From Blasia pusilla (taxonomy: Eukaryota), in NCBI GenBank assembly GCA_050084515.1, contig CM114271.1, positions 47,802,001 through 47,866,000 of the forward strand: a DNA stretch of 64,000 nucleotides, given 5' to 3'. Positions 1 to 37,275 of the stretch are shown piece by piece; position 1 is the first letter of the stretch, and every line of letters begins with the position of its first letter. Made by a program: the position numbers and the translations under genes. The notes beneath the pieces were generated by a model, which worked only from the letters and a program-made list of their open reading frames with translations, searched no databases and was not told the origin of the DNA.

Positions 1-2373
1 GCATTTGAGATGCTCAAAGATAGATTGATGTCTATGCCCATATGGAGGAGACCGATCAGGGGGCATCCTTTCTAGCTGCATACGGATTGGAGCATGTTGG
101 GGCTTGGAGCCATGCTCACCCAGCATGACGATGATGGTAGAGAGTTTGTGGTGGCTTATGCTAGTCGCTCGAACAACGCTACAGAGGTGAAGTATAGCTC
201 GTATGAGGATGAGTGCTTGGCTACAGTGTGGGTTGTCGCACATTTCAGATGTTATCTATTCGGAAATCCCTTTACCATCATTACTGATCATCAGCCACTT
301 AAGTGGTTGATGGAGTTGACAAGCAAACAGGGAAGCTTGCGAGGTGGGTTCTTTTGTTGTAGGAGTATGACTTCCAAGGTGGTGCATAGACCTGGGACGC
401 TCAACCAAGATGCAGATGGTTTGATTCGTAACCCATGCCCGAGTCAACGAGATGCGATTGGAGCTTGTTGGCATGGTGAGAGTGATGAGGAGTTGGTGCC
501 AAGATGGTATGCGTGAGCCTATTTCGGTTTGTTGGCTATGGAGAGCCAGATTTCTGAGACTTCGATGGCAAGGTCTGATGGTGAGTCCTTAGATCCAGAG
601 GCCGGTGAGGAGACGACAGGTGGTTGAGACATTCACGACGATGGAGTGGTCTTGGAGTACCTGCATACTGGCAGCGTCGCGAGCACATTGGGTGCTAGAG
701 AGTGGGATCGGATCCTATAGCAAGCCAGACAGTTCCGGTGGGAGGGCACATATGTGTTGCGAGTGTGGGAGGATGGTAGAGTGCGTGTAGTGCCTCATCC
801 TTCACAGAGAGCACATTTGGTGCATCATGCCCACGAGGAGTTGGGTCATTTTGGAGTGAAGCAAACGTACAACTTGCTCCACATTCAGTATTGGTGGCGA
901 GGCATGTAGAGTGACATTCAGCAATTTGTTGCCAGATGCATGGTGTATGATCGAGTCCGAGAATCGTTCAATGCTCTGACTCTATAGTTGCAGCCACTTC
1001 CGATCATGGGTTCACGTTATAGATGGAGTTTGGATTTTACAAGACCTTTGCCTTTGACGGAGCGCCATAGTTGCTATGTGTTGGTGATGGTCGAGCACTT
1101 CTCGAAGTGGATAGAGTTGGTTGCATTGCCTGACAAAGCGAGTGAGGGAGTAGCGTATGCCTTCCTAGATTGAGTGTTGAGTCATTATGGACCACCAATT
1201 GAGGTGTAGACAGACCAGGGTACAGAGTTCCGCGAGGAGTTTTAGGCCTTGTGTGATCAAACAGTGATTGACCACCGCACTACTTCGCGAGATCATCCTA
1301 AGGCGGATGGACTAGCGGAGCGGGTTGTGCACACGATAAAGGAGGACTATGCAAGTATGGCTTGTAGAGAGGTCACTTAGGAGATTGGGACCTTCAGTTG
1401 CCGTGGTTGGCGATGGGATACAGATTGAGAAGGCACGCATCCTTAGCGTCTTTCTCACCGTACTTGTTGCTTTATGGCCAAGACCCAGATTTACCTACGG
1501 CTATTCCTTGAGATGTTGGTGAGGTGTTGAACCTTCATGAGCCTGATGTATGGATGCGAGCATTTTCTCAGAGGGCTGAGTTATTTTGGAGAGTGATGCC
1601 CATGGCGTTTGAGAACTTGGCGATTAAGCAACATTGGGATACGTTGAGGTATGCGACTATTCGAGCCGGTGATTATCGACCTACTATCCGGAGATTTCAT
1701 CAAGGAGACTATGTCTACTAGCAGTAGACGGCACCCATGACATTGGATGTGACTGCAGGGCGCACCATCTTGAGAGTGCGTGAGGTTTTGCCATCCAGTG
1801 TTCTCTTATTGGAGGGACGCGATGGTATGGTTTGGAAGGACCATGTGCGTAACTCTGCGCCACGTCATCTTCCGAACATTAACGGTATAGTTGATCCAAG
1901 CTTAGCAATAGTTCCTGCACGCTTGCGGTGTATGTTGTGCGGTTCCGCCCGTGGTGCACTCACTATGCTAGTCTGTGATGGGTGTTCGAGAGGATGGCAT
2001 ATGGCATGTTTGACGCCACCTCTCACTAGGGTTCCTCAAGGACGATGGATGTGTCTCAAATGTACATAAAGTAGGTGGTTCTACATTTCAACTTGTGTCT
2101 GTGACATGGATGATAAGAAGGCAACTAACGATGGGGCCACATGAGCACCCAAGATTCTTGCTCTTAGCGTTCGAGAGATGTATGTCATAGTAGTTAGGGA
2201 TAGATGGCTATCTGGAGTTAGAGGGACCTAACCATCGGGGGGGCGATGGGAGATATTTTGGTACTTTTTGTCTTGTTGTTTGGACGCCATGAGTTAGCAT
2301 GGGATGGTGCGTGTTTGTGTGTGTGTTTAGTGACAACGATGTATGTTGTGTAGCAATGTGAATGCATACGACA
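1..2373 (+). mobile_element. Ty3/Gypsy family X, copy 1 (3' part): RNase H, integrase, PHD finger, 3' UTR, single terminal repeat B
   Basis: RNase H motifs (LGAMLTQHDDDGREFVVAYASRS, FTIITDHQPLKWLM); integrase zinc-finger (HEELGHFG) and core (WSLDF, VLVMVEHFSKWIELVAL, TDQGTEF); C-terminal C4HC3 PHD; ends in repeat B (2248-2373, ...ATACGACA). Many in-frame stops. Confidence 0.93.
1926..2069 (+). pseudogene. PHD finger at the integrase C-terminus (family X copy 1)
   Basis: CMLCGSARGALTMLVCDGCSRGWHMACLTPPLTRVPQGRWMCLKC has C4HC3 spacing and the typical PPL..VP.G.W.C..C tail. The same domain recurs at ~14436-14577 (+) and ~50575-50718 (-). Confidence 0.93.
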
Positions 2374-3674
2374 CTCTCGATGAAGGTCAAAACATCTATC
2401 CTTGGTGTGACCATAAGTGTGGCAATAGTCACACTGGTAGCGTGGTGGGGCCATCCTCTATGGCTCATGAGCAACCGGAAGCGCTCGTGGTCCTCTCCCA
2501 TGTTGTGTGTAGTCTCTCTGCCTATGGGCCCCTCCACACGTTCAACAAGACAACATCGGTCCCTTCTGGGCAACATATGTAGGTACGGGTCGTTGCCTCA
2601 TAAGCTCACTGTACCCGCCCTGCTCTTTTGGCACACTAGCCCGCTCCCGTGGTACTGGTGCTCGCTGTGGCACGTGTGGGTTCACCGTCACTCGTGGACC
2701 CGTTGACTCTCAAGAAAATCTAGCAATCACTACGTGCTCCTCACTCATGTTGAGCTCAATACGCTCAGACAACTGGAAGACCACCTTCAATGTGGGCTTC
2801 GCTGTGTGAATCAACACCGCATCTCGCACTCTCTTATGTAGTTCTCGGCCCAGAACTCTGTACCAATACTAGACTGAGTGCACCTCAGTCACTCCATACG
2901 TAGCAATGATTAGCCTCCTCATGCGTGTGAATGCCTCTCTCAGACTCTCACCCGATCGTCGCTGAAAATCTTGCAGACTCTTCAGCTTGTCGGTGCGTAC
3001 GCCTTAGTAGCTCTTCCCCAATTGTCAGAAGAACTCCAATGTGGGACTGAAGATGGGTGGCCCTCTACCATCAGAGGTCTCTGCCACATCGCCTGTCTCA
3101 CTACCCTCCTCTCCATCCAGTCTGCGGGCTGATGGTGTGAATCTCTCTCCTCTCACGATCCCATCATATGCCTCACGATCATTAGTGGACACATACCCAC
3201 GAGCCCAATACATCCTCCTAGCATCCATCTCTATTGAATATAGTGATCAAAATTCCATGTAATCATCCATCATAGGACTCTCCAAGTGCTGGAACAACCC
3301 CTTCCATACCATGAAAGGGTTGAATCGTGTCAAGGTCCATATCTCCTAGAAGTCGCACCACGTGTCGAACTCCTGGATAAAATCATCTAAGTCGATGGTG
3401 GCCACTGCATCCAAGAAATGACGCATGCCTTGATGGCCCATGTCGTCCATCTCCTGCCAAGTGATATTGCCTCCGTCTGCAATCTCGTCACCAGACCCGT
3501 TGTCTAGTGATGACGATCCAACCACGGATGGATGTTGAGGTAGCTCCTCACTTGTAATCCCTTAGTATCTTACTTCACTCCGTGTCACACCACTACTTTT
3601 GCACCTAGATAACCTAGTACTAATCCTTCCAAAGAGATCCAACACCCTAATACCCTGCTCTAGGATGCGTGACA
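2374..3674 (-). mobile_element. Degenerate Gypsy gag fragment related to family X, with a short DNMT motif-I remnant at its right end
   Basis: The minus strand gives gag-like KLKSLQDFQRRSGESLREAFTRMRRLI and a Zn knuckle CDYCHTYGHTKDRC next to copy 1 repeat B. 3605-3674 reads RILEQGIRVLDLFGRISTRL. Confidence 0.65.
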
Positions 3675-5085
3675 AGCTACCACTACCTACTAGGCGTATC
3701 TTCTCACTAATTAACAATGGGACCAACTTTTGAAAGGTTGGATATTTCTCTTTTACAAAGATAGAGGTCCCAAAAGACTTATAATCCTTTGAAAGGCCTT
3801 GAAGAATGAACGGAATCAAATCATCATCTTTTATTGTCACTCCAATACTATTCAACAGATCAACAATATGCCTCATACTCAAAACATAGTTATTGATGTC
3901 TTGCAATCTTTTCTTCACTTTGTTCAATTATTGTAAAATTTCAATTGAAGCTTTCTAGCCTTTGTAGATGTTTGGAACAACTTTTCCAATACATTCCAGA
4001 CCTCCTTCAGAATATCAACATCTTGAATGTAACCAATCATTGGAAAACTCATTATTATTGAAATGTAGTGGATTACTTGCCTTGCGCATTTGTTCCAAGC
4101 AAGAACATTCGAGTCTGTTGACTCATCTTCTAGCTTGGCCTCATCACGTGTACCAAGCTCCCATAGTTCTTGACCCATAAGAAATTATTTAATACAAAAC
4201 TTCCAAATATGATAATTTTTCTTTTCTAGCTTCTCGCTTGTGATTGTTGTTGAGGAATACTCCATGAAAAATGATTTTACTCACAAAAATATAATTTCAG
4301 GCTTTCCACTGCTCTAATTGAAACATAGATCATTCTTGAACACAAATTGACCTGAAATTTTCCAAAATTGACCAACTTTATGGAAGAACTAGTTGAAATT
4401 GACTTATAGAGAGCAAACTGCAAAACTTTCCTTCACTAATTCCACTTTTCTACACTAAAATTGCTATTGCAAGAGCTCAGAATGTCATAATAGAGCGATT
4501 TTGGATGCGTTCGAAAGCTTTCAGCGAGTTCTATACAAATTTTGGAATAAGATTTCGGTATTTTCTTAATTTTCGCAGATCCAGATTGCTAAATTAATCG
4601 AGAAAGCCCTAGAAAATGCCTCCAAATTTTTGTCACTATCACCACTCCCTCTAAAATCTTCTACCAATGAGCTCTAATTGAGATCTCCTTCTCCCAACCT
4701 AAAATTGTGCCTTCTCTTGCCTCTCTTCTCTCCTCATATACCAAGAATTTCAATTGATATTATCCTATTGCTTTGATATAATGTAGAAAAAGTGTTAAAG
4801 AAGCATAACTATTGGGATACGACTCTCACACTCACACACCATCATGGAGAACAAAATTTTACAATGAGAAAATGAATCCCCTTCTCAATTTAATAGGGTA
4901 TTTACAAGCAATCCTAAACCTAATCCTAACCATAGTCTTGAGTTAGACTAATTATGATTAATTGTCCCTAGTTAAGATAATCGCGCTTAACTAACTAATC
5001 AAGATTAAGCTTCCCTACTTCATGTGAGTACCAAATATAGCAGTTTGGGTGTCCGATTAGCTTAACTGTAACTCTGTCTTCAATA
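3675..5085 (-). mobile_element. Ty1/Copia remnant: 5' LTR (~4782-5085), degenerate Met PBS, gag (~3675-4265)
   Basis: Copia-type gag (KLEKKNYHIWKF...WELG...EVWNVLEKLFQTSTKARKLQLK...DDDLIPFILQGLSKDY). LTR runs TATTG...TACA and is followed by TTATATCAAAGC, which resembles the TGGTATCAGAGC PBS. Confidence 0.8.
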
Positions 5086-5344
5086 CATGGGAACTAGATG
5101 GATAGGCAAATGTGTGGAGATTACCTATCAATTGGCAGATAAAATCTTATCGGTATGCTATGCCCCCTCCGGCATAGGAGATCTTTGATGCTATTGGGCA
5201 TGCAAAGATCTTCAATTCCTTAGACCTTTGAGCCAAATACTATCAGTTGCCTATCAAATTGGAGGACATGTAGAAGACGGTATTTTGGCGCATCGATCCT
5301 CACGGGAAGGATTGTTTGTACTAGTGCGGTTCTTACCATCTGGG
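5086..5344 (+). pseudogene. Family X reverse transcriptase, N-terminal part (host copy interrupted by copy 2)
   Basis: MCGDY...EIFDAIGHAKIFNSLDL...YQLPI...FLPSG; continues as LKNA at 15528; colinear with the RT at 52700-53345 (-). Confidence 0.85.
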
Positions 5345-5833
5345 TGTCACGACTGTTAGGATAGATCGGTAGGATCTAGCATAGCGTCTACACGAGTAGT
5401 GGAGGACAGGCCCAAGAGGTCAAGGATGACCTATTGAGGCCTCGGGAAACCTGAGAGAGCACGTTTCCCCTTCATTTCGGCTCATTTGGAGCCATATTGA
5501 GAAACTTACTATTTTGGGCAAGTTTCCATATTGGGGATAGTTGAATTTACACTTTGGGAAGTAGCCCTTGACCCGCTACAGCAGATCAAGAGCCAAGGAG
5601 GTGACCTGCAAGCATAGGTTACCATTGAGGGAGTTGGGAGAGGGAAGGGGGTATACCTCGAAGAGTGAGAGCTTGAGAGCTCATTCTCTCTTTGTTGAAC
5701 CTCTTCGCATAAGGCAGCGGAGCTATGGTCTTGCTTGCCTTGTGTGTGTAACCCAAGCTTCTCATTCGGAGAGTGGGTTTAGGGTACACATATGAGAACT
5801 ATAGTGTTGTGAGAGAGATTTGATCTTACTTTA
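5345..5833 (+). repeat. Terminal repeat A1 of family X
   Basis: Direct repeat of 14893-15395, 47127-47640 and 36766-37275 (diverged); reverse complement of 49757-50262. Followed directly by unique leader sequence, not by repeat B. Confidence 0.9.
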
Positions 5834-7100
5834 CAAAGAGAGAATGAGAGAGTAAGAGAGCTTCATGGGGGAGCTCGCTGGTCACTCGTTGTTTTTTCAG
5901 GTTGGGGACCGTGTTCCTTGTTTAGCGGCTCATGGGAGTGCTCACCGAAGCAAGGGCTGCTTTGATTGTTCTTTGCATTTTCCGATTTTTCGTGTGGAAG
6001 AGTGGCGCGCGAAAGCGCTGCCCAATTTGTGATAGGGATTGATTATGGGGGCGGGTTGCTCCATGCTGGCGCTCTCGGGAGCATTATGTAGCTTGCTGAT
6101 TTGTATTTTTAGAGGTTTTACATTTTTTTTGGGAGAAATCAGCGCGGAAGCGCTGCCAAATATTGTGTAGGAGAAAGAGACATTGGGCTTTAGAACAATC
6201 CCTGTCAATTTTTACTGGAATGTCCGATTCATAATTTTTTTGACGCTCTTGTAGATCGTGAAGCATTGCACGTTGTAAAACAAATAGTGCATAATTTTGA
6301 GTTGCGAACAAAAAGTTATGGTTAATCTTGCAAAATTTCCATTGCTAAGCGATTTTTAGGGTCAAACCCTAAACTAGCCGCCACGCCGGTGGCGGCCGTC
6401 GCCGTCATAGTCACCACCAACAATCCTCCATCAAAGATCAATCGTCATCGTCAATGGTCAACTGTCACCGTCACCATCAACGGTCAACCATCACCGTCAA
6501 CGGTCCAACGTCTGTTGTCCACCCTTTGGTTACCATTGCCGCCATTACGGAGTGGAGGGTCTTCCACGACGTTCGTTGATTCTTTGACTTGCGACGCCAC
6601 CAGGTACTTTGTTTCGGCCGCCACCATCATCGCAGTTTGTCATCAACCACTGATGGCAGATGACCTTTGGTTATGGTGTTTGAGTTATGATTTCATGCTG
6701 CTATGTTGTGATTGATAGCCGCTCGGCGACGATCGAGTACCGTGCCATGACGCCCGTAACCGCAACGCCCGTAACCGCAACGCCTCGCCGATTGCTGCGC
6801 CGTGCCGCTTGTGGCCGCACCGCACTGTCTCGATCGCCAAACCGCTCCTTCACTAAGGAGCAGAGCGAGTGAATTGCTGATTGAGGAGGGTATGCCATCG
6901 AGTGCTGCACCCCATTCATGAGTGCTGTTTGTAGCCGTTCTGTGCCGCCAGTGCTGCACCGGACCGCTCGATCTGCACCGCACATCGAGGAGGTTGAGTA
7001 GCGTCAGTACGAGAGGAGTAGGACTTGCTGATTGGAAAAGTTTTCTTCATGATTAAATTGAAGTCAAGATTTGCACTTGCTGAGGAGCGACATCGACATG

Positions 7101-9435
7101 TGTAATGTACAAGTGGTTTTAAAATTGATGTTTATACACTAATTTAATGAGTTCGATCCCCAAGAGGATCACGATTATGAGAAAAGAGAGGTCAAGATGT
7201 CGTTTATCTTGCAATAGTTGTAGTTAAGTGTGTACAATTTGGATTCAATAATTTATCAATGTCTTCAGATCTCTCGTAGTACCAAGATTTCTTTCCTCTA
7301 TTCTCTCTAGTGGAGTTGAAATCACACTCAGGTAGATCTTCATTCAACATCAAAGAACCTCATAGAGATCCCAACAAGAAGCTGGCTTCTCCTACCTTCA
7401 GAACTCAATCCGTCTAGGCAGGCTACTCTCTGTCGAACAAATTTCTTACAACTCCGTGTTGATTATTCTATTGATGAAAAAGTTCTCCTGATTCACTCTT
7501 CACTCTGCAGACCCATGAGAATACTCAGACATATGCATCGCACATCTGAATGAAGAAATGAGTGCTTTACTATTCCATCAAGAATGAGAAATCTTCAGAA
7601 GTATGTACAAACACAAGAGGGTACTACTCTCTTGCTCGGACCATTCCTACAGCATAAGGACTTCATGAGAGAATGATGATGATAGCTACTTTCATGCTTC
7701 TTAAATATTCTCCGAAGTAGGAGTGGTTCTAAGGATTGGAAGCGTTCTTGAGAAATCTGGTGTCTCTTCAACAATTGTAACTACTTAGATCTATGGTGCT
7801 CTTTTCTTTTCCTATGATCCCTGTGAATTTTCTGTGCGTAACTATATTAACTTCCTATCTGATACAAAAAGTTGCGCCTATTCCTAGTCTAACTGTTCTA
7901 TCAATATGCCGCTTGAAATCACTTTGAGTCTTAGCTTCGCTTCGCTGCGAAGTCTAGACCTCTTTTGCTTCACTTGAGGACGAAGCTCTTTCTCTTGATC
8001 TGAAGACGAAGCGCTCCATTCTTTGCTCTGGTTTCAAGTGCTTCGTGCTTCGCTGAGGAGCAAAGTACTTCTTCCTCTTCGTCTTTGTACTTCATTCAAG
8101 AGCGAAGCACTTCATGAACAAGTTTTGAATAGGGCTTCATTGATTTTCCAAGCTTCTCTCGGAGTCTTTAGACTTCATTACTGCATTTCCCTCTCCTCTA
8201 AGGCAAATCCTTGATCTTCCACCTCTCTGCCTTGTCCTAGGAGCTTTGTGATCTCTTTCAATATCACTCATTCTTCTACTACACAAACATAATATCCAAA
8301 ATCATTATGTATACACAAGTTTTCTTTGAATAAAAAGCTCTAAATCTTCAAAAGTACAAAATTGTGGGTATTACATGCCCCCTCCCTCAAATGTGAGCCG
8401 CCCCGGCAAACACTTCATGATGCACCTTCTAAATCCATAAAGGTATCTTCTAAGCTATCAAACTCAGTTGTAGGTGGAAGGTTTGTTGAAAATATTAGGG
8501 GTGTGATTTTGCATCTTCTGTCACCATTTGATAACAACTAACAAAGTTCCTAGCACTTCGTTCTCGACTAATACGTTTGATAGAGTAAACATAGGAAGTT
8601 CTTCAAGATTGATCGTGAGGTTGGATACGACTTCCGGAAGAGACTTTGTATGATTGTTGAACTGGAATTTTCAATGTTTGTTGACATAATCGATCTCCTC
8701 GCTCATCTGTTGTTCGAAGCTCTTTCTTGCTTCCTTGATTAACTCCTTGACATCTTCAAGGTCTAACTGCACTTCGTTGAGCAACTTTTGCTCCGCCTCC
8801 AAGACAGCGATCCTACCTGTGGCTTCTGACCATTGTGCCACTAAGTCCTTGTTAGTTTCTTGTTGTTCTTGAAGTAACTTCAAAGCTTGAGCGTTCTGTG
8901 TCGCTACTTTCTTGAACTCGTGGGTGATAAGATGCACTTGTTGTCGGTATTGTTGAATCAACTACGAAGCTTCCTTGACTTGCAAAGCCAACTGATCAGC
9001 CCCACACTCCATATTGATCGCCAAGCTTTCCCATTGGCGTGCATTCCGCAATTCATACTGAGCCTCGACTAAGTCGCTTTGAACTTTACAAAGCGTCAAT
9101 TTAGTGTCTTTGACTTCTTGATTCCGAAGCTGAAGGTTTGTCTCTACCACTAAGTGTTGTGCTTCGTCTCTGATGAAGCTTGTGCCCTACAATTGATGTC
9201 ATCGAGCGCTTGTAAATACTGGTCCACATTTGCTGTGTCATCAAGGTGTAGTACTTGCTCTAATTGGCTCATTACAGGAACTGCCAGATTCAGAAACCAC
9301 ACCATGTGGTTTGCGGTCTGTGTCATGTGACGAAGAGTAGGGATCTCTTCGCTAGTGCGAGGTGTCTCCTCAGAGTCTTCTTGCGGTGCTGGCTCTGTTT
9401 CATGCCAGGTGTTTCAATTTACATCCTGAGTTACG
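7101..9435 (-). mobile_element. Nested fragment of Gypsy G2: coiled-coil accessory ORF, PPT and complete 3' LTR (7101-8375)
   Basis: LTR bounded by TGTAAT...ATTACA; purine tract GAGGGAGGGGGCA immediately upstream on the minus strand; LTR and ORF are homologous to 22436-24450. Confidence 0.85.
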
Positions 9436-11100
9436 TCCGGACCGAGGGCCAGAGAGGACACCAGAGCGAGTAGCCGATCCGGGTGGGCCTAGAGATCGTG
9501 CACCACGTGGTCTCGTTGGGGGACGAGGAGCTGGAGTTTCCCGACAGGGTGGTGGAGGTGCCCGTAGAGGAGGTAGAGTACCACCATCTAGATGCTCCAA
9601 GGGAGACGCCGAACGTGAGGCTGGGATGGCTGCTCAAACACAACTGCTATAGGAGCAGATTGCTGCTATGGCATTGAGGTTACCCGATGCCGGATCCGTG
9701 GCATCACCATCATATGGAGCATACAGAGATATGGAGGATCCTAGTTGGATGTGCGGGGTTGCCCACATGTAGGACGTTGCAGTTGTGACGCATGGAGTAG
9801 CCACAAAGTTGGATCCACAATGAGGGGAAGCCAGAAAACATACTAGGCTTCCTCAGTCTTTCACGTTGTCCGAAGCGATGAGGACCCCATTGATGGGTCC
9901 TCATCAAAGTTTCTGGAGAGTTTGTGATGTTGTTGATGTGTAGGCACAGAGGGCGATGGGAGAAGCAAGTGCGACGACTCCTATTGTTGATGCTCATGAG
10001 GGGCATATGTTGAGCACGTTGTTGGGGGCGGCCATCATTGTGTCGCACTCCTTTATTTTCTGCGTCGATGTTATGATATTGGGGGGAACGTCTGCCGAGG
10101 CTTTTGGCTCGCCGCTACACTATGTGAGCGCAGAGTTGGAGTTCTTGCATCACGTTCAGAGGTGATTGCAGAGGAGGTGATGGACCTGCCCTTGGAGCAG
10201 ATGCTCGGGCCATCCACGTCAGATTCATGGCAGGCTGCGGCTGCTAGGATGGTGGAGATGCCTGCTAGACCAGCGATAGAGTGTGCCATGGATTCTCCTA
10301 GTGTTGTATTGCTGGATGACCGAGGAGAGGTCTTCCAATTGGGGAGTCCCTGAGGTAGAGCTTTTAGTCCGCAGCGCGTCTTGTTGGATTCACGAGCCCA
10401 ACCCCAAATGTTGGGGAAAGTGTCATTCAGAGGATTGGGCTTGACGAGAGCCGATGTGGAGCGTTGTCCTTTACGGATACAAACATCCTTGGGTGGAGCA
10501 AGTACCACATAGTATATCACCCGACAGGAGGTCGTGGTGAGGATTCGCCCAAGACATCCTACATATGAGTCCGTGGTGTGAGCCAAGGTGATAGTGACTG
10601 ATGCAGAGTCCTACGACGTCTTGGTTGGTGGAGCATTGTTATATCCGATTGGGTTTTCCCTAGATTACTGGGAGGAGTCAGCATCCTAAAGACCAGGATG
10701 GCAGTCAGGTGATGGGTGCCTTAGCTCATTACCCATTCGATTCACAGATGCAGTGATCGAGCGACGGCTAGGAGAGGTGGAGACCTTAGCAGTATTTAGC
10801 AGTGTCATCACTTGGCTTGGTGATTTGATTGAGGAACATGTCCATGTAGAGGATACTTCCGTTCCTGAAATTTCTATGGAGAGGAGTGTTATGGTAGCCG
10901 CATCATTCCGTGGAGGAGAGGTGCTGTTGTGGGGCTCGAATGAGGAGCTTCGATGATTGGTAGATGAGCACGTGCAGACCGCGTGGAGCGAGGCGTTTGC
11001 ACCGGAGCGTGACGGGTCTGAGGAACCCAAGGTAGCAGGGAGTGCTATGATGACACCCTTGGATACCACACCCATTGTGTGGTGTATCCTGGAGGAGGAT

Positions 11101-12050
11101 ATTCGAGTGTTAGATCTCTTTGGAGGGATTAGCACCGGGTTAGCTGTAGTTTTGCAAGGAGGAGTGCAAGTGCAGTAGTACATGTATGTGGAGAGTGATG
11201 ATGTTGCAAGGCGCGTCTCACTACAACATGTGGCGCAGTTACGCCTACGTTTTCCCGACTTATTGTCTACGTTCCGTGGTACAAGGGTACCAGAGTTCCC
11301 TACCGAGGGACATTGTTGTTGTTGGGGGCGCAGGACTTAGAGCACGTAGGGACCATTGATTTGGTAATTGCCAGTTGGCCATGTCAGGGCCAATCGAGTG
11401 CTGGATGAGGCATCAGGTTGGTTGACACTCGGTCTAGGTTGTTTTGGGAGATGTTGAGGGTCTTACGGCAGTTGCAGGAGCACTTGTCTTGTTCTCCAGC
11501 CTACGGTCTGGAGAATGTGCCGATCTTAGGAGACTCCAGGTCATAGGTGGTGATGAGTGCTCATCAGGTACGTGCCTAGATCGGCCTAGCAGTAGTTTTG
11601 GATGCGGCGAGTGTAGGTTCTAGAGCCCATCGCCGCGTCTATGGTGGACCAACTTGGTGCCCCATGCGGTGTTACGTAGGGCGTATGCAAGAGTGGAGCG
11701 CCGCTCCCATTTGTTAGTGGATTCCATTCTGGATCCAGGTCGTCAATCACAAATAGTGAGGCACGATCATCGACCACCGTTGATTGTGGTCAACAGGGTA
11801 GGTAGGCCACGGGTAGCCTTGCCCACGTTTGTGAGTTTTCCCACTTCCTATGCATTTAAGGAGGCCGCTCTTGGCTTGGTTTGGGATGACCAGGTTCAGC
11901 GGTTGGTGGAGCCCAATGTCAACGAGAGAGAGTGAGCGATGGGATTTCCCACATGAGTGACCGCAGTACCGTCAATGTCAGAGGCATGAGGATGCCATGT
12001 ATTGGGTCAAGCAATGGACCTGAACTGCTTGACATGGATCCTCAGCTTGG
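11101..12050 (+). pseudogene. DNMT3-like DNA cytosine-5 methyltransferase domain inside retrotransposon pol (disrupted)
   Basis: Motif I IRVLDLFGGISTGL (11101); II YMYVESD; III RDI; IV IDLVIASWPCQG (PC at 11379-11384); SRLFWEMLRVL; VI LENV (ENV at 11511-11519); VIII LDAASVGSRAHR..LWWTNL (~11600-11656); IX ERE*AMGFP (~11925-11950); X LGQAMDL (12002-12022). Canonical, non-permuted motif order as in DNMT3. Confidence 0.93.
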
Positions 12051-12429
12051 GAGTGGCTGAGCAGCGCCGTATGAGATCGCGACAGATCGCAACAGTTGGG
12101 TTGGTGAGCCCCATGCCTATCGAGATGGTGGAGGCAGTGGCTGGGGGCGAGACCCAAGGAGATCTATACACCAGGGGAGATCGTGAGAGACATCCTTGGA
12201 CTTCTTGGGATGTTTTGCACGTATGCCAGGAAATGAGAGCCACAACATCAAGCGTGGTTTTGGGCACTGCACGTGGAGGAGATCAAATTTTATAGTTGGG
12301 TGTAGGAGAGCGGCCGAGTGTTGTTTTTCAAGACGGGGTTGCACCATAGCAACCACCAATACCCGCACCGAAGAGTCCTACCGTAGTCACAATGGAGACT
12401 TGGGAGCCAGATATGGGCCCTAAGTTGAC

Positions 12430-14580
12430 AAGAGGAGATTCAATTCGATTGCGAAGCCACTAACCTTGCTGACCAAGGTGGATCACGAGTGGCATTGGGG
12501 GGATGAGCAGGAGCGAGCATTTTAGCTGCTCAAGGACAGATTGACGTCCGCGCCTATCTTGAGGAGACCAATCAGGGGTCGTCCTTTCTAGTTGCATACA
12601 AATTGGAGCATGTTGGGGCTTGGAGCGATGCTCACCCAGCATGATGATGAGGGTAGAGAGTTCGTGGTGGCTTAGAATAGCGGCTCGAACAATGCTGCAG
12701 AGGCGAAGTACAGCTCATATGAGGGTGAATGCTTGGCTGCAGTGTGGGCTGTCGTGCATTTTAGGTGTTACTTATTCAAATTCGGCAATCCCTTTATCAT
12801 CATCACTGATCATCAACCACTAAAGTGGTTGATGGAGTCTGATAAGCTTATAGGGAAGCTTGCGAGATGGGCTCTGTTGTTGCAAAAGTATGATTTTCAG
12901 GTGGTACATAGACCTGGAATGCTCAACCAGGATGCAAATAGGCTGAGTCGTAACCCATGCCCAAGTCAGCGAGATATGACTGGAGCTCGATGGCATGGAG
13001 AGAGTGATGAGGAGTCAGTTCCAGGGCGGCACGCGTCAACCTATTTAGGCATGTTGGCTATGGAGAGCCAGAGTGTGGAGACTTTGATGGCGAGTACTTG
13101 GATCCCGAGGCCAGTGAGGAGACAACAGGTGGCCGAGACATTCAAAATGATGGAGTAGTCTTGGAGTACCTTTGTACTGGCAGCGTTGCAAGCATTGTGG
13201 GTACTAGAGAGTGGGATCGGATCCTATAGCGCAGAGGTCTAGACATTTCCTTTGGGAGGGGACACATGATTTGAGGGTTTGGGAGGATGGTAGAGTACAC
13301 GTAGTGCCCCATCCTTTGCAGAGAGCATCACTAGTGTAGCATGCCCATGAGGAGTTGGGTCACTTTGGGGTGAAGCGGACATACACCTTGCTCGAGGTTC
13401 ACTATTGGTGGCGAGGCATGCAGACTAGCGTTCAACAGTTTGTTGCCAGGTGCATGATGTGTGATCAAGTCCGAGCATCGTAAAATGCTCCGACTCCACA
13501 ATTGCATCCATTACTGATCATGGGCTTAGGATATAGATGGAGTTTGGATTTTGCAGGACCTTTTTCTTGGACGGAGCGTCACACTCGTTATGTGTTGGTG
13601 ATGGTCGAGCACTTCTCAAAGTGGATCGAGTTGGTTGCATTGCTTGACAAAGCAAGTAAGGGAGTAGCTTATGCCTTCCTTGACAGAGTGCTGAGTCGTT
13701 ATGGCGCACCAGCTGAGGTGTTGACAGACCAAGGTACCGAGTTTCACGATGAGTTCCACGCCTTGTGTGGTGAGGCGTTGATCGACCACCGCGCGACTTC
13801 ACAAGATCATCCCAAGGCGGATGGATTAGAGTTGTGCAGACGGTGAAGAGGGGTTTATGCAAGTATGGCTTGCAAAGAGGTCACCTAGGAGATTAGGACC
13901 TCCAGTTGCCGTGGTTGGCGATGGGATACAGATTTAGCAGGCAGGCATCCTTAGCATCTTTTTCACCGTACTTGGTACTTTATGGCCGAGAGCAAGATTT
14001 ACCTACGGCCATTCGACGAGATGCTGGTGAGGTGCGGGACCTTGATGACCTAGATGTATGGATGCGAGCATGTTCTCAAAGGGCTGAGTTGTTTCGGAGA
14101 GTGATGCCCATGGCGTTTGAGAACTTGGCGATTGCACAGCATCGGGATACGTTGAGGTATGCGACTATTCGGGGTGGTGATTATCAACCAACTATTTGGA
14201 GGTTTCATCAGGGAGATTATGTCTACTTGCAGTAGACGGCACTGACGACGTTGGATATGACTACAGGGCGCACTATCCTAAGAGTGCGTGATGTTTTGCC
14301 ATCCGGTGTTCTTTTGTTGGAGGGACGCGATGGTATGGTATGGAAGGACCATGTGCGCAATTGTGCACCATGTCACCTTCCTAGCATTGATGGTACGGTA
14401 GATCCGAGCTCAACAATAGTTCCTGCAGACTTGCGGTGTATGTTGTGTGGTTCTGCTCGTGGTGCGGCCACGATGCTAGTCTTTGATGGATGTTCGAGAG
14501 GTTGGCATATGGCATGTCTGACGCCACCTCTCACTAGGGTTCCTCGGGGATGATGGATGTGTCCTAGATGTACATAGAGG
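12430..14580 (+). pseudogene. Family X copy 2: RT thumb/RNase H, integrase, PHD
   Basis: SIAKPLTLLTK, LHTNWSMLGLGAML, WSLDFAGP, LTDQGTEF, PHD CMLCGS...GWHMACLTPPL; colinear with copy 1. Confidence 0.92.
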
Positions 14581-14764
14581 AGATACTAGGTAGGTTTCGA
14601 TTCCAACTTTTTCTGTGACATGGATGGCAGGAAGGCGACTAACAATGGGGCCACATGAGCACCTGGCCTTTCTGCTCTTAGCGTCCTAGAGATGTATGTC
14701 TTGGAAGGTAGGGATAGATGGTTATCTGGAGTTAGAGAGACCTAACCACCAACAAGGGGGCGAT

Positions 14765-15523
14765 TGGAGATATTTTGGTACTTCTCGCCTCTGTTTATGA
14801 ATGCCATGAGTTAGCATGGGATCGTGTGTGTTTGTAAGTGTGTTCGATGACAGCGATGTATGTTGTGTAGCGATGTGTATGCGCACGACAACTGTTACGA
14901 CTGTGAGGATAGATCGGTGGGATCTAGTAGAGCATTTGCACGAGTAGTGGAGGACATGCCCAGAAGGTCGAGGATGACCTGGTGAGGCCCCAGGAAACCT
15001 GAGAGAGCAGGTTCCCCCTTCGTTTCGGCTCATTTGGAGCCATATAGAGAAACTTACTATTTAGGGTGAGTTTTCCATATTGGGGATAGTTGACTTTCCA
15101 CTTTGGGAAGTGGCCCTTGACCCGCTACAGCAGGTCAAGAGCCAAGGAGGTGACCTGCGAGCATAGATTACTGTTGAGAGGGCTTGGGAGAGGGAAGGGG
15201 TATACCTCCAAGAGAGAGAGCTTGAGAAATCATTCTCTCTTTGTTGAACCTCTTCGCATGAGGCGGCGGAGCTATGGTCTTGCTTGCCTTGTGTGTGTAA
15301 CCCAAGCTTCTCATTAGGAGAGTGGGTTTGGTTTGACATTGAGAGACACATGTGAGAACTATATAGTGTTGTGAGAGAGATTTGATCTTACTTTAAGTGG
15401 AGATATTTTGGTACTTCTCGCATCCATGTATGGATGCCATGAGTTAGTATGGGATTGTGTGTGTTTGTGTGTGTGTTTGATGACAACCATGTATGTTGTG
15501 TAGCAATGTGTATGCGCACGATA
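14765..15523 (+). repeat. Split 3' terminus: B1 (14765-14890), AC, A2 (14893-15395), B2 (15398-15523)
   Basis: B = TGGAGATATTTTGGTAC...GCGCACGACA (~125 bp) occurs twice, on either side of a copy of A. Junction reads GCACGACA-AC-TGTTACGAC. Confidence 0.9.
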
Positions 15524-15975
15524 TGGGTTAAAGAACGCTTTGGAAAAATTTTTGACGGTAGTGGATAGGATCTTGGCAGGTCTGGGTTTTTCTAGATGTT
15601 ATATTGATGACATTGTAGTCTTTAGCGCCACGATTAAGGAGCAATAGCGACAACTGGAGGAGGTGTTTCGACGATTGAACTTACATTGGCTGAAGCTACA
15701 TTCGAGAAAGTGCAAGTTCTTCTACGACCAGATTGAGTATTTAGCTCTTACGATATATCCAAGTGGCCTTGGTGTTCAGTAGATGAAGGTAGAGACTATC
15801 TCACACGTTACACGCCCTACAAATATGAGTCAAGTTTGTGCATCCATGGGATTGGCGAATAGGCCGAGATCCTGATTTACGTGCGGCCATTTGTCACGAT
15901 GCTAGTGAGGTGTTGAATCTCAATGATCTTGATGTATGGATGTGAGCATATTCTCAAAAGGTTGAGTTATTTTAA
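15524..15975 (+). pseudogene. Family X host copy continued: RT C-terminal half fused by deletion to an integrase fragment
   Basis: GLKNA...DRILAGLGFSRCYIDDIVVFS (YIDD)...KCKFFYDQIEYL; from ~15861 the sequence matches the integrase region near 1477-1590. Confidence 0.85.
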
Positions 15976-17931
15976 ATATAGTATTCTCCAACCTTCATCT
16001 AACACACATACAGGCAACCCCATAGATATCCCATTCTTTGCTATTGCACATTTTCATGCCTTCCAAGCATCAACCCAAGCATTTCCATCTATCTCTTGAT
16101 TCTCTTCCGTTCTATTGATGATGTTACCTACATTATAGGTCTTTCTTTACAAGTAGTTACTACTTTACCCAATTTTTTGAAGCAACTCTTTGTCCTTATT
16201 TTATTATTTAACGGATACTTACAAAGAAGAAAAGATTTGCAAATTAGACCGCATAGATCTTCGAATTGATTATGAGTATGATTTGAAGGGTGGGGGAGTG
16301 TTTGACAAAAAAGAGGTAAAAGGCACATCTAAAGGTTTTGCGGCCAAAAGACTAGCAAGAATCAAAGAGTTAAGTTATGTGATGAGACATGCAATCAATG
16401 GATTATTCCTTTTGCACTTACACGTGTCTTTTGATACTTTCATGAAAGCATATGCTCACCATTCCCTTGATAATCATCACCTTGGCCTTTCTCATAATTC
16501 TTCTTTATCTGTAGTCACAACTTGTTTTCGACAACACATCTTAGTGACTTTGGCATTGCCATGTCAAACCAAAAAGACCTACATTGACATGTCAAACCAA
16601 AATTGACATCTACCCTATCATTATTATTCTTGTCAAATTTGCCCAAATTTTAGGAATTGTGTATCCCCGTTTATGTCTTCATGATCTTGCCGATTCTTTT
16701 TACATTCCATTTTAGATTTTTAGACTCCTTTATTCTTATGGGGTTATTACATTCCTATGTCCTCTTTGTTTGGATTGTCTAGAGAATCCTTCTAAAAATA
16801 AACACTAGTAGTTCAATATGATATAGGTAGATTTGACGAGACGATGTCCCACGCGTACTCCATTGCCCATGGTGCGCTTTTCTTTTGGCACAATTTCACA
16901 AACTTCTATCCTCCTACTTTGGGACTACGCCATTTTCGAGAAAACTTCATATTTTCTTCGCGTAATACTTTAATGCCTTCAAACCCATGAGAACGTATCT
17001 TCGGATCGTAGAGACCTTCGATGGTATCACTCGCATCATCTTTCAACCCAATTCCTGTTTGCTCACAATAGTGAACTGTTTTTGGGGACAGCGGAATCGC
17101 ATGGCACATAGAATAGAGAGTTCTTCTACGCGACTGTGGCGTCTTCGCGCACCAGCGAATGTACCGACGAGAATCGACTCTAATGATGATAGAATCGAAA
17201 AGTGCACATTTAAACCTGCAATGTCATCATATAGAATAGGTAGTAGAAACTCGGGCGAACCGCCCATTTGGGTTGCCACGTAAGACTCAGATCTGAGTCA
17301 TCTGACGCACTTTGGCTAGAAAACCCTGAGCTATGTACTGAAGAAATGAAGAATGCGTCAAATGACAGTCTGCTGTTTAGGTTCACTGGCACGGCCTACC
17401 GCACCGTGAAAGTGATGGGACAGGCGTAGACCTAACTTTGTCACTTAGAAAGGTGCAAGAGAAAGCTGAATCACTGTCCAAGAAATATATAACAGTATGG
17501 TGAATTTTTTGTCTCGACTGACTTGGCGTGAGAAGTTCTAGCTCGTGGGAATTTGGTGTTGCCAATGTTTGGCACAATGACAATCTCTTCGTGCATTTCA
17601 TTGAAGTGAAATAACTAGGTGTTAGAACAGTCTCCAGGATGGAAATCCTTTACTTCACAGGGTGATGATGCTTGACCATCTGCCGTCCTTTGCGGTCATC
17701 AGGAGTCTACTGGAGTTCCTTCTGGAAGAAACCTTCGACAGTCCGTCTATCACACAGAACGAAGAGGTGAGTAGAAGAGGAGCACTATGCCAAACTTGAG
17801 CATTCGGTTGAGGTGACGTCTTAAAGCCAATAAATTCTCTTGCAGGACTCTTTTCGGCGCCGCCACATGGTTTATTCGAGACCTCTTCAACGGGAGTTAT
17901 CTGCTGCTAGTGAGTAGAGGCGAATCCGTAA

Positions 17932-20805: not shown

Positions 20806-21946
20806 TAGTACTAAGTCACTTACAACTCAAGAAAAATACAACTACTTAACTAAAGAACCCTAAGTGGCATAATATGGTATTAGTTAGTTGCTAAGAATGA
20901 CTAGAGGGTATAACGTGGACTTTTTTTAACATAATTTTATATCATTTTCAAGTGGAATTCTTATAAATTAATGACATGTCGTTATAAATGACTAGATTAG
21001 TACAAAAGAATGAGATGTGACTTTATTGTGAATTAAATTTAAATTAAATTTTGGTTCAAAATATGACATGTAAAAATAAGACTAGATTAGAATTTATAAT
21101 ATTGAAAAAACTTGCATATAGTTGTAAATATACTTGGTATATTAAAACTATTGCCAAGTTCACAAATAAGACCCTAATAAGATCACATCATTTTGCAATA
21201 ACCCTCCTTTGGGTCCTTTTTAATTTTAGTTTAGAATCTCTCTCTTAGCTCTCTTGTCACTCATTGCATTCACTAAGAATGAAGATATAGCTCAATCCGA
21301 TACTTTATTCATGTTGATCTTCTATCTAATTCCTAGTTGTCCACACATAAGCCGACACATAAGTCGACACTCTCCGGAAAAAAGAGACAGAGATTGAGAA
21401 ATAGATGCCATCTTGAGTTCTCAAAATTTCCCTTACGGCTCTCTCTTATGATTACTCGGGAAATATTCAAACCCTATGCGTGGTCTTGGGATGTGAGCTC
21501 TAAGAGTGTAGGAAAGTTCTTATACTAAAATTAAAAAGGACCCAAAGGAGGGTTATTGCAAAATGATGTGATCTTATTAGGGTCTTATTTGTGAACTTGG
21601 CAATAGTTTTAATATACCAAGTATATTTACAACTATATGCAAGTTTTTTTAATACTATAAATTCTAATCTAGTCTTATTTTTACATGTCATATTTTGAAC
21701 CAAAATTTAATTTAAATTAATTCACAATAAAGTCACATCTCAGTCTTTTGCACTAATCTAGTCATTTATAACGACATGTCATTAATTTATAATAGTTCCA
21801 TTTAAAATTGATTTAAAATTATGTTAAAAAAATCCACATTATACCCTCTAGTCATTCTTAGCAACTAACTTATACCATATTATGCCACTTAGGGCTCTTT
21901 AGTTAAGTAGTTGTATTTTTCTTGAGTTGTATGTGACTTAGTACTA
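20806..21946. repeat. AT-rich foldback: inverted arms 20806-21230 and 21524-21946 with a ~290-bp spacer (possible MITE or Mutator-like relic)
   Basis: The arms are near-perfect reverse complements. The ORF track shows almost the same peptide on opposite strands (21051+ and 21703-). Confidence 0.88.
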
Positions 21947-23593
21947 TTGGAGACAATAAAGCACATGTGCTTTATTGTCTCCAACTTGGTAGTATCACAA
22001 TTGAGCTTCTTCACTTTGTCAACAAGGTTGTTCTCATTCGTGAGCCTGGATTGATAATCTTGAGCAAGGTTGGAGGCAAACAAAGTCTGTTTCGGCAGAC
22101 TTTTGACCGTCCTAGGTACAGACATATCTGTGCAGGCCCGACTGCCCACATCTTGCACTTGGGCCCACCCTGCATGCACTTGATCCTGGCTTGCATCCTT
22201 CCCGGAACCTTGGCCTGCTTCAAGCCCACGCGCGGCCCGCATCTATCCTATGCGGGCCATACTTCTTCTTTTTTCCAAAAAATTCTATACAATTTTTTTC
22301 TTTTTTTGCGTACGTCCAACCTTGGGCCCAATATGGGCTATGTGGGCCCATATCCAACTCACATTTGGCCCGCGTAAGAGAGGCGCAAGCCGGACACAAG
22401 ATGCCACGGGAGGGGCGCACGCTAGGGGCGGGTTGGAGTTTCTATTTTACAGTCGTTTTAATAAGTTCGATCCCCAAGAGGATCATTGTTTGAGGAAAAG
22501 AGAGTTCGAAATTACAATTCTTTTGTAATAGTTGTATTTAAATGTGTATGAGTTATATTCAATGTCTTATCAATATCTGCTGATCTTTCTTAGTACCAAA
22601 GGATCTTTTCTCGATTCTCTCTAGTGGAATTGATAGCATGTTCAGGTAGATTTTCCTCTCGACATCAAGAAACCTCACAGAGATCTCAACATGAAAGCTG
22701 GCTTCTCCTACTTTTGGAACTTAATCCGTCTCGGCAGGCTACTCTCTGTCAAACAGATTTCCTACAACTCAGGTTGATTATTTCATTGATGAGAAAGGTT
22801 CGCCTGATTCACTCTTCACTCTGCAGACCCAAAAAGAATACTCAGACATAAGCATTGCACATCATAATGAATGAATGATTGCTTTACTACTCCATCAAGA
22901 ATGAGAAAGTTTCAAAGTGTATACAAGCTCGAGAGGGTACTACTCCCTTGCTTGGACCATTCCTACAGCATAAGGATTTCATAAGAGAATGATGATTATG
23001 GCTTCCATCTTGTTTCTTAAATACTCGTTAGAGTAGGAGTGACAAAGATTTGAAGCGTTCTTGATGAAGCTAGTGTCTCTTCACTATTTCTAACTACCTA
23101 GATCTATGGCTCTCTTAGCTTTTCCTACGATCCCTGTGAATCCGCAGCACAAAACTGTCCTAACTACCAATTCGATACAAAGGATCGCGCCTCTTCCTAG
23201 TCTAACTGTTTTAACGTGCGTCGCTTGAAATCACAGTCGTTCTTAGATTCGCTTCCCTTCGCTGTACTTCACGAGGACGAAGCGCTTCATGCTTCGTTCT
23301 TATTTCAGGTGCTTCGTGCTTCGCGCTTTGTACAAGAGCGAAGTACTTCTTTCTCCTTTTCTTCTTGATTCATTATGCTTCGTTATAGAGCAAAGCACTT
23401 CATAGACAGAGCTTCGTTGAGCTTTGTTGAGCTTCCGAAACTTCTTGCTGAGTCTTGAGACTTTGTTACTGCATTTTCTTCTCCTCTAAGGCAAATCCTT
23501 GATCTTCCATATCTCTGCCTTGTCCCAGGAGCTTCGTGATTCACTTTAATCTTACTCATTCTTCCTCATAATAATAAATAATCAAAATCAAAA

Positions 23594-24394
23594 TCATAAT
23601 GTACAAGAGTCTTCTTTGAAAAAAAAGATATATTCTTCCTCGATTAACTCTTTGACATCTTCAGGGTCTAACTGCACTTCGTTAAGTAGTTTCTGCTCTG
23701 CCTCCAAGACAGCGATCCTCCCTGTAACCTCTAACCACTGCGCCAGTAAGTCTTTGTTCATTTCTTGATGTTCTTGAAGCAATTTCAAAGATTGAGCGTG
23801 GTGGGTGGCCAATTTCTTGAATTCGTTGTGAACACGATGCATTTGGTATCGATATTGTTGAATCAGTTGCAAAGCTTCCTTGACCTGCAAAGCTAACTGA
23901 TCATCCCCACACTCTAGGTTAATCTCCAAGCTCTCCCATTGGCACGCGTTTCGTGCTTCATACTGACTCTGGACTAAGTCGCTTTGAACTTTGCGAAGCG
24001 TGGTTTTCGTGTCTTCGAGTTCTTGATCCCGCAAGTGAAGAGTTGTTTCCGCCACTTTCAGCTGAACTTCGTTGTCTGACAAAGCTTGGGCCCTATAGTT
24101 GAGGTCATCTAGGCCTTGTAAATACTCGTCCACCGTCGCTCTGTTGCCTAGGTGGAGAACGTGTTGAAGTTGATTCATGATCGGAATAGCTATATTCAGG
24201 AACCACACCATATCGTTGGTTGTCTGAGACATGAGACAAAGTGCAGGACGGTGATCACTAGCACAAGGCGTCTCGTCGGAGTCCTCTTGAGTGGCAGGTT
24301 TTGGTTCCGAGGGTGTTTCAAAATTGACCCTGCCGCGCTCCAGTCTCGGCAGTTCGGTGAATTCCTCGACTTTGCCTGAAGCCGAAGTATGCAA
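23594..24394 (-). pseudogene. Coiled-coil accessory ORF in the 3' region of Gypsy G2 (3'-truncated by deletion into the LTR)
   Basis: 266-aa ORF rich in heptad-like L/Q/E; homolog at ~8671-9430 in the same position upstream of the PPT and 3' LTR. Confidence 0.7.
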
Positions 24395-29900: not shown

Positions 29901-29979
29901 TGATCCTCTTGGGGATCGAACTTATTAAAATGACTGTAAAATAGAAACTCTTGTATATTACATATAGCAAGAAACTTTT

Positions 29980-33921: not shown

Positions 33922-34181
<260 letters not shown>

Positions 34182-36765: not shown

Positions 36766-37275
36766 TGTCACTTCTCTTAGGATAGATAAACAAGATCTAG
36801 TAGAGCACCTTTGTAGATACTAGAGGAGAGTCTCAAGAGGTCGAGGATGACCTGTTGAGACCATGGGTAACCTAAGGGAGCAGGTTTTCCCATTATTTTA
36901 GCTTATTTAGAGCCATACATAGAAACTTACTATTTAGGGCAAGTTTCCATATTGAGTATAGTTGAATTCCTAATTTGGGAAGTGGCCCTTGACTCGCTAT
37001 AGTAGGTCAAGAGCCAAGGAGATGACTTGCGAGCATAGGTTACCATGGATAAAGCTTGGGAGAGGGAAGGGGGTATATATATCTCCAAAAGAGAGAGAGA
37101 GCTTGAGAGCTCATTCTCTTTTTGTTGAATCTCTTGGCATGAGGCGGCGGACCTATGGTCCTCATTGCCTTGTGTGTAACCCAAGCCTCTCATTAGGAGA
37201 GTGGGTTTGGTTTGACATGAGAGAGAGAGAGAGAGAGTTGTGCATCTTTGTGAGAGCTTGTGATGGAGAGATCCA
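36766..37275 (+). repeat. Diverged repeat A of family X (possibly A1 of the copy at 42750-48745)
   Basis: Begins TGTCAC...TTAGGATAGAT and is colinear with 5345-5833; no repeat B follows. Confidence 0.8.

Follow-up and report, generated by a model that had tools for sequence, protein, structure and literature searches.

Split A...B-A-B terminal repeats on a Ty3/Gypsy-lineage retroelement with a DDE integrase in Blasia pusilla, and a tentative account of their origin

The window analysed here is a stretch of 64,000 nucleotides of Blasia pusilla DNA (assembly GCA_050084515.1, contig CM114271.1, positions 47,802,001 to 47,866,000 of the forward strand). It contains several copies of a retroelement, one of which, copy 2, occupies 5345-15523 and is the main subject of this work. 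Copy 2 is framed by two kinds of repeat, A and B, in the order A1...B1-A2-B2. This unit, described in an earlier note made from the sequence alone, was reproduced by repeat search, self-BLAST and direct reading, and there is very little doubt that its structure is as described. The parts of copy 2 are as follows.

5341-5344, plus strand: left target-site duplication TGGG, read directly; present once only in the empty paralogous site
5345-5833, plus strand: A1, the left terminal repeat, starting with TGTCACG and containing a TATA-like box (repeat searches)
5680-5694, plus strand: segment of A1 complementary to the putative primer site (complement search)
5834-5848, plus strand: putative self-priming primer-binding site (PBS) CAAAGAGAGAATGAG, the exact complement of 5680-5694
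5834-7119, plus strand: leader, repeated genome-wide next to A and transcribed in sense (read depth and joints)
7120-9404, no strand assigned: foreign piece in place of codons 1 to ~345 of the first open reading frame (ORF1), with homology to 22433-24329
9407-12214, plus strand: ORF1 remnant with a protease-like part and a C5 DNA methyltransferase (DNMT; tblastn, domain search)
12438-12439, plus strand: breakpoint at which the reverse transcriptase (RT) domain is missing (reads, relatives, no RVT_1 match)
12496-12891, plus strand: RNase H (RT_RNaseH, E 1.6e-28; RT_RNaseH_2, E 2.6e-25; domain search)
13319-13804, plus strand: DDE integrase, Integrase_H2C2 (E 1.1e-13) and rve core (E 2e-11; domain search)
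14437-14571, plus strand: PHD finger at the integrase C-terminus (E 3e-8; domain search)
14754-14763, plus strand: polypurine tract (PPT) AAGGGGGCGA, one base ahead of B1 (sequence reading)
14765-14890, plus strand: B1 (repeat searches)
14891-14892, plus strand: dinucleotide AC within the B1|A2 junction, J1 (sequence reading)
14893-15395, plus strand: A2 (repeat searches)
15396-15397, plus strand: AG within the A2|B2 junction, J2; a single T in the other window copies (sequence reading)
15398-15523, plus strand: B2, the right terminal repeat, ending in ...CACGATA (repeat searches)
15524-15527, plus strand: right target-site duplication TGGG, read directly

The two A repeats of copy 2 share 445 matches against 42 mismatches (91% ungapped identity, global alignment) and are the closest pair among the five A copies compared in this way, and the two B repeats share 112 matches against 14 mismatches (89%, global alignment). 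Direct reading gave ...CGACA-AC-TGTTACG for J1 and ...CTTTA-AG-TGGAG for J2, and it bore out the TG...CA ends and the CA-nn-TG internal junction reported before. In the genomic reads of X12, a whole-genome sequencing run with the same organism label, J2 is 1 nt shorter at 15397 in 97 of 407 reads. In a paralogue at 53342-52761 (minus strand) the flanks 5094-5344 and 15524-15855 adjoin each other and the target is present once, as TCGG, near 53089-53099, and X12 reads join 5321/5326 straight to 15562 (82 + 283 reads). Because the flanks are contiguous in the paralogue and in these empty-site reads, the whole of 5345-15523 entered as one unit, and the proposal of a single integration with a 4-bp TGGG/TGGG duplication stands.

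Reading frames of the window copies were translated with X at stops, without consensus or repair. The domain search of copy 2 revealed RNase H, an H2C2 + rve integrase, a PHD finger and a fragment of a C5 DNA methyltransferase, and no RVT_1 match in the sense frames. At 12438, 1669 X12 reads depart from the window sequence into a common continuation (agreement 0.88), and relatives carry ~1.1 kb extra at the matching position; together with the lacking RVT_1 match this indicates that copy 2 lost its RT. The ORF1 remnant corresponds to residues 346-1243 of the Marchantia homologue P0002 (tblastn) and is interrupted by stops and frameshifts, so that the methyltransferase motifs (I at 11110, IV near 11370, VIII at 11616, IX/X at 11921-12020) are spread over three frames. 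The closest proteins to this ORF1 are 1250-aa proteins of Marchantia polymorpha (69% identity), followed by Calypogeia and Sphagnum. The foreign piece at 7120-9404 shows low, uneven genomic depth and RNA from the opposite strand. Both the methyltransferase gene and the internal damage had been missed by the earlier note; copy 2 is a damaged member of a DNMT-bearing subfamily.

Three other units in the window show A or B ends.

50392-49629, minus strand: 3' end of copy 4, with PPT-B1 at 50392-50265, TC, A2 at 50262-49762, T, and B2 at 49755-49629 (self-BLAST, reading)
2246-2373, plus strand: end of copy 1, PPT-B running straight into unrelated sequence, the A...B form (self-BLAST, reading)
47127-47767, plus strand: solo A-T-B unit in ORF1 of another copy, with the duplication AGGA/CGGA (self-BLAST, reading)

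The B1-TC-A2-B2 end noted before for copy 4 was thus confirmed, with the addition of a T between A2 and B2. Copy 4 encodes, in this order, CCHC gag, Asp_protease, RVT_1, RT_RNaseH, H2C2, rve and PHD, without a DNMT (domain search), and it is a DNMT-less sister having the same ends as copy 2. In an intact related locus, L041, two ORFs fill the element: ORF1 (1369 aa) combines an aspartyl protease with DNA_methylase, and ORF2 (1047 aa) contains RVT_1, RNase H, H2C2, rve and PHD. Loci L052 and L009 agree with L041 in gene content, PHD being present in L052 as well. The Gypsy pol order (protease, RT, RNase H, integrase) was found in copy 4 and L041. The H2C2 and rve matches in copies 2 and 4 uphold the assignment of a DDE integrase, and no tyrosine recombinase was matched in the frames searched of copies 2, 4 and L041, as had been claimed. 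Specifically, Phage_integrase at E<=0.01 was absent from the sense frames of copies 2 and 4, from both strands of 3451-5344 and from the antisense frames of 5834-9421 (antisense 9421-14764 lay outside the scan), and at E<=0.001 from the two ORFs filling L041.

Residues 1-353 of the gag/protease/DNMT ORF, whose residues 1-345 are missing from copy 2, lie on the minus strand at 2374-3450, directly against the B end of copy 1. The breakpoints of this fragment and of the remnant starting at 9407 are <=8 codons apart, at the second CCHC knuckle, which may be chance or an insertion hot spot. An inversion linking the two was considered and ruled out, as both host flanks of copy 2 share one orientation. 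A Copia-type gag fragment (Retrotran_gag_2, DUF4219) occupies ~3690-4220 (minus strand), with the ORF1 fragment on one side and the host RT fragment on the other.

The layout was followed through the family by a scan of metagenome contigs, in which 18 aligned ORF1 proteins served as the query and 75 loci were obtained, and by mapping the A, B, leader and pre-PPT pieces of L005 onto all of them. Duplicate loci were removed (L004=L003, L007=L006, L026=L005, L044=L014, L061~L031, L059~L011). Self-comparison detected A...B-A-B in L005 (= L026), L014, L018 and L039, and partially in L001, L031, L038 and L059. All 19 independent complete 5' ends of the related loci read flank|A-leader (in L016, A is followed by an internal deletion). 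A complete A-B or B-A-B unit at the 5' end, which the earlier note had named as the arrangement that would make its 5' end a deletion artefact, was not found: B occurs upstream of A1 or between A and leader in 0/19 of these ends. At the 3' end, PPT-B-nn-A-B was observed in five independent loci (L005, L014, L018, L038, L039) and PPT-B|flank in eight (L003, L012, L019, L021, L028, L030, L043, L046), two more loci being cut off. Perfect 4-bp duplications surround seven elements, namely copy 2 and six related ones. The duplications of the related loci are listed by form.

L005, A...BAB: CATA
L014, A...BAB: AAGG
L018, A...BAB: AATC
L039, A...BAB: AATG, ambiguous, left end damaged
L003, A...B: TGTT
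L028, A...B: ATTA
L043, A...B: TACA
L012, A...B: GGTA/AGTA, a 3/4 match

The split layout is therefore a family trait and not a deletion artefact. The elements do not have two equal long terminal repeats (LTRs): the left end is A alone, the right end is B-nn-A-B, and the whole B-nn-A is present once only. A mini copy at 5531-5819 of L011 (15778-16066 of L059) carries the 3' half of A, 9 nt of the primer site and some further bases before GT-B. Its A-leader-B junction was considered as an informative form and rejected, the mini copy being read as a product of internal deletion that has an inverted A fragment upstream.

The signals of reverse transcription occupy defined positions relative to these repeats. 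A G-rich PPT stands directly ahead of B in three window copies (1, 2, 4), and 13 related loci show AGGGGGG(C/T)GA, then GT, then B. The distant intact L041 and L052 also carry the PPT and keep the PPT-B-nn-A arrangement. At the other end, the first 15 nt of the leader (5834-5848) are the exact complement of nt 336-350 of A1 (5680-5694); a perfect 15-mer complement within 489 nt has a chance expectation of ~5e-7, and the match starts at the first base after A. In L014 and L062 the complementarity extends over 16 nt (leader nt 1-16 with A 164-179), in a sequence unlike that of the window family. Among the 12 loci tested, seven more show self-complementarity of 9-11 nt and three show none of >=9 nt; in L041, L052 and L009 nothing clear was seen, the end of A there being not defined. 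Minimum free energy folds of RNA starting at the A segment pair its 5' end with the putative PBS, and a GGGGTATA box (GGGG(G)TATA) precedes the primer segment by ~28-33 nt in both families. The earlier note had seen no tRNA PBS by eye; no TGG-type tRNA site directly follows A in either family (complementarity to tRNA sequences was not compared), but a putative PBS of the self-priming type adjoins A1. A purine-rich run after A1 was also considered as a second PPT. This was rejected, because the related family has no such richness in purines there and the self-primer site accounts for the run.

The PPT and PBS are placed as in LTR elements, and their function is putative; the putative PBS resembles the self-priming design of the Tf1 type. 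Since the plus strand would start at B (PPT) and the minus strand at the end of A (PBS), the LTR made by reverse transcription is probably B-nn-A. The suggestion of a non-canonical route of reverse transcription and priming is consequently not sustained: the priming looks ordinary, with the PPT abutting B1 and a Tf1-like self-primer abutting A1. What is out of the ordinary is more likely the way in which the cDNA ends are joined and cut before integration than the priming.

The junctions between the repeats bear on this step. In five of six related loci J2 reads ...TTTTCA-GT-TGTGG, i.e., the end of A plus the GT that follows the PPT, and in two of three window copies it reads ...TTTA-T-TGGAG, where T follows the PPT. 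J2 looks like what joining the two RT-made ends would yield. J1 has the form CA-nn-TG, flanked by ...CA(C/T)GACA and TGTCA(C/T)G..., and is an 18-bp perfect palindrome in L014. A terminal inverted repeat is formed only by the left end of A and the right end of B; the left end of B and the right end of A share just TG. The target duplications bear out A-left and B-right as the integrase ends (TGTC...GACA). The J1 dinucleotide is GC in four of seven loci of one family, with TC, AT and AC in the others, and AC and TC in the window. The idea that it is made anew in each cycle is unsupported, as GC prevails in 4/7 and the others are compatible with ordinary decay. L005 and L026, although one and the same insertion, carry different dinucleotides (GC vs TC). 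We read it as inherited sequence since decayed.

Genomic reads extend these observations to the other copies in the genome. X12 depth over 5734-6834 is ~1080-1290, equal to that of the A1 bin, and ~700 over 6835-7201; the leader, called unique before, is in fact repeated genome-wide. The counts of read joints given here are drawn from the 15 joints listed, beside which 343 further joints exist. A->leader joints are covered by 462 X12 reads (15339->5811, 224 reads; 15357->5786, 193; 15357->5810, 45), and A->B joints by 355 reads in three joints (219, 89, 47); neither B->leader nor PPT->A occurs among those listed. Beyond the end of B (14890), 2078 X12 reads pass into dissimilar sequences (agreement 0.33), and B is a true terminus because these reads diverge. 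RNA reads, from runs added on the basis of their species label, cover the element in sense, including A, B1, A2 and the B2 bin, and J1 is transcribed (90 + 83 reads in X16, variant subfamily). The A->B joints gave 3, 1 and 0 RNA reads vs 219, 89 and 47 DNA reads, and A->leader joints 16 and 6 vs 224 and 193, the RNA counts being small. These reads fit the joining of LTRs described below weakly. Flagged RNA read starts were weak and confined to 6135, 6342 and 10834. Two further features of the sequence were noted: a GC skew of ~+0.22 on the element sense strand over 10001-16000 and 50001-59000, and an excess of C>T (1183 places) and G>A (1179 places), far above other changes, among the differences between X12 and the window. 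The latter fits the decay of methylated cytosines across copies.

Two sets of signals thus conflict over the ends of the element: those of reverse transcription give a B-nn-A LTR, and the integrase ends lie inside it, A-left and B-right being joined tail to head as J1. The conflict would be resolved if two RT-made LTRs were joined head to tail, (B-J1-A)(J2)(B-J1-A), in an intermediate such as a 2-LTR circle or a linear molecule with tandem LTRs. Cleavage of the outer J1 by the integrase would follow, and the product would be inserted with a 4-bp duplication. This product would be A - PBS - genes - PPT - B - J1 - A - J2 - B, permuted with respect to the order made by reverse transcription. The A...B copies and the mini A-B units may come from the cutting of a one-LTR circle or of both J1 sites; recombination between repeats explains the A...B copies and solo A-B units equally well. 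Since an A...B copy has no means of restoring the stretch of A that lies ahead of the RNA start, the A...BAB arrangement would have to be the propagating form. The layout, the duplications, the gene content and the positions of PPT, PBS and TATA box are observed. We infer where the transcript starts and ends, that a joined-LTR intermediate exists and that it is cut at J1, and for a joined-LTR intermediate cut at J1 the odds are slightly short of even. To the account as a whole (Gypsy lineage, RT-defined B-nn-A LTR, joined-LTR intermediate, J1 cut) we assign a probability of roughly 0.5. More tentative still is its general form, a 'permuted provirus', in which the integrase ends are fixed inside the LTR and every insertion passes through a head-to-tail LTR-LTR intermediate that is cut internally.

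Several observations weigh against the joined-LTR account. A random single cut of a 2-LTR circle is expected to produce A-B-A-genes-B copies as well, and none was found among the 19 independent 5' ends, against five insertions of the observed form; the intermediate may therefore be linear, the cut directional, or such copies may collapse fast. The transcript ends and the extrachromosomal DNA forms are deduced, and no pile-up of RNA read starts was flagged at 5680 or 15230. The RNA junction counts are small and come only from the 15 joints listed. The right end of A in the window is ...TTTA, not CA, so that J2 there is no clean CA+TG join. Finally, a solo A with its own duplication (ATTT/ATTT) at 36766-37286 is not directly predicted. 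It is ~84-86% identical to other A copies, ends in ...TTTACA and lacks any B, and its source may be an A...B-A form or a related family whose LTRs consist of A alone.

Among the other explanations, replication of the DIRS/Ngaro kind with the enzyme swapped would run RNA from inside A1 into B2, use B1-A2 as a bridging template by which the ends are restored and joined, and leave insertion to the DDE integrase. The repeat layout is that of split-repeat recombinase elements, PMC5890265 gives SymbioDIRS as 'A-coding region-B-A-B' and assigns DIRS-type repeats to KnitGypsy, and sense RNA over A, B1, A2 and the B2 bin is in line with such a transcript. However, the exact abutment of the PPT on B1 and of the putative PBS on the end of A1, the TATA box ~30 nt before the primer segment and the PPT-adjacent bases in J2 all become coincidences, A->B joints are scarce in RNA among the joints listed, no recombinase was matched, and target duplications are present. 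We consider this mode of replication unlikely. It is more doubtful again that the mobile unit is a plain A-genes-B with unlike ends, the B-A-B tail being secondary (a tandem mini A-B or an unequal exchange). A...B is indeed the commonest 3' form (8/13 independent 3' ends), perfect duplications flank three of the four testable A...B loci, and solo A-B units exist, but five independent A...BAB insertions (copy 2 and four related loci, one of them ambiguous) each have a single duplication bracketing the entire unit, with no separate one for the A-B part. RNA starting inside A, which the positions of the TATA box and primer segment suggest, could not, moreover, restore the first 160-335 nt of A without A2, and PPT-B-nn-A is kept in L041 and L052, which are intact and distant. 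Copy 2 has other rearrangements, which might suggest that an element of ordinary build, with A-B (or B-A-B) LTRs on either side, lost part of its 5' LTR. This can hardly be credited, as it is contradicted by the absence of B next to A1 in all 19 independent 5' ends, by the plentiful A->leader joints genome-wide (462 X12 reads, three joints) and by the duplication that abuts A1 directly.

Comparison with known systems places the element in the Ty3/Gypsy lineage: it has the Gypsy features except two equal LTRs, and it departs from DIRS elements in having target duplications and no recombinase. Elements of the DIRS order, which use a recombinase, typically insert without target-site duplication. 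The A1...B1-A2-B2 arrangement is shared with PAT-like, Ngaro and SymbioDIRS elements, which differ from the present ones in the DDE integrase, the 4-bp duplications and the PPT and PBS placed as in LTR elements. The layout had been thought possibly undescribed for Gypsy elements, yet the Fig. 4c legend of PMC5890265 (de Mendoza 2018) already presents KnitGypsy-Dnmt3 of Klebsormidium nitens as having a DIRS repeat structure with Gypsy domains. Like KnitGypsy-Dnmt3, as depicted there, the present element combines a Gypsy domain set, a Dnmt3-type methyltransferase in the coding region and DIRS-like repeats. Unlike it, the host here is bryophyte-like and the DNMT sits in ORF1 with gag and protease, with RT, RNase H, integrase and PHD in a second ORF; DNMT-less sister copies such as copy 4 share the same ends. 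The passages on KnitGypsy-Dnmt3 in the main text of PMC5890265 give no duplications, PPT, PBS or mechanism, and its supplements may hold more. Besides this paper, the literature search found no other account of the layout and no mechanism in print. The present work contributes the duplications, the map of PPT, PBS and TATA box, an interpretation of J1 and J2, the extension to bryophyte-like hosts and the sister copies that lack a DNMT. None of the 23 + 23 protein matches listed is named as Klebsormidium, and three JGI proteins of the fused DNMT-RT-RNase H-integrase-PHD type (P0042-P0044) show 35-37% identity. In these proteins (1632-2246 aa) a single chain combines RT, RNase H, integrase and PHD, and in P0042 also DNA_methylase. 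Their build is nearer to the fused Klebsormidium polyprotein than to the division into two ORFs seen in the present elements.

Internal LTR-LTR cutting in retroviruses is a disputed side or salvage route that starts from a by-product. The resemblance to retroviral 2-LTR circles lies in the joined integrase ends (CA-nn..-TG), whose internal cutting gives integration-competent ends; in contrast to those circles, the junction is here fixed inside the element and its cutting would be obligatory. Cleavage of a palindromic LTR-LTR junction by integrase is reported for foamy virus (PMC1180852) and HIV-1 (PMC1905944). Self-priming is predicted for bryophyte Tcn1 and the Tf1/Sushi group in PMC6317226 (Neumann et al.). 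The putative primer site described here resembles theirs in its position right after the 5' repeat, in its complementarity near the predicted RNA start and in the bryophyte hosts. Tf1/Sushi and Tcn1 elements have two equal LTRs and a chromodomain, in contrast to the PHD finger and permuted repeats found here.

The window contains further repeats. A 265-bp inverted repeat with 98% identity (22436-22700 / 29686-29950) brackets ~7 kb holding a gag-CCHC-protease region (25944-26820) of a ~70%-related Gypsy copy, and could reflect either recent duplication in inverted orientation or a foldback structure. A 1.26-kb direct repeat with 78% identity (41276-42537 / 44021-45278) ends exactly at the ORF1 start of copy 6 (45273) and resembles the two LTRs of a further small element that inserted there. 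Also present are a 428-bp inverted repeat (96%; 20806-21233 / 21521-21946), perfect short tandem copies at 33926-34179, a diverged tandem array at 35331-36634 just ahead of the solo A, and tandem repeats at 57160-59138 upstream of the copy 4 gag.

The question of whether joined-LTR DNA can serve as a precursor of integration is an old one in retrovirology, and here it becomes testable in a whole retrotransposon lineage, with many copies, transcription, intact relatives and a structure that is hard to produce otherwise. These elements will be wrongly classified by annotation tools that seek two equal LTRs, or a recombinase beside split repeats. The group of DNMT-bearing Gypsy elements known first from Klebsormidium appears to reach into bryophytes as well. 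If the element is indeed a permuted provirus, its own DNA methyltransferase could act on the free DNA of the intermediate.

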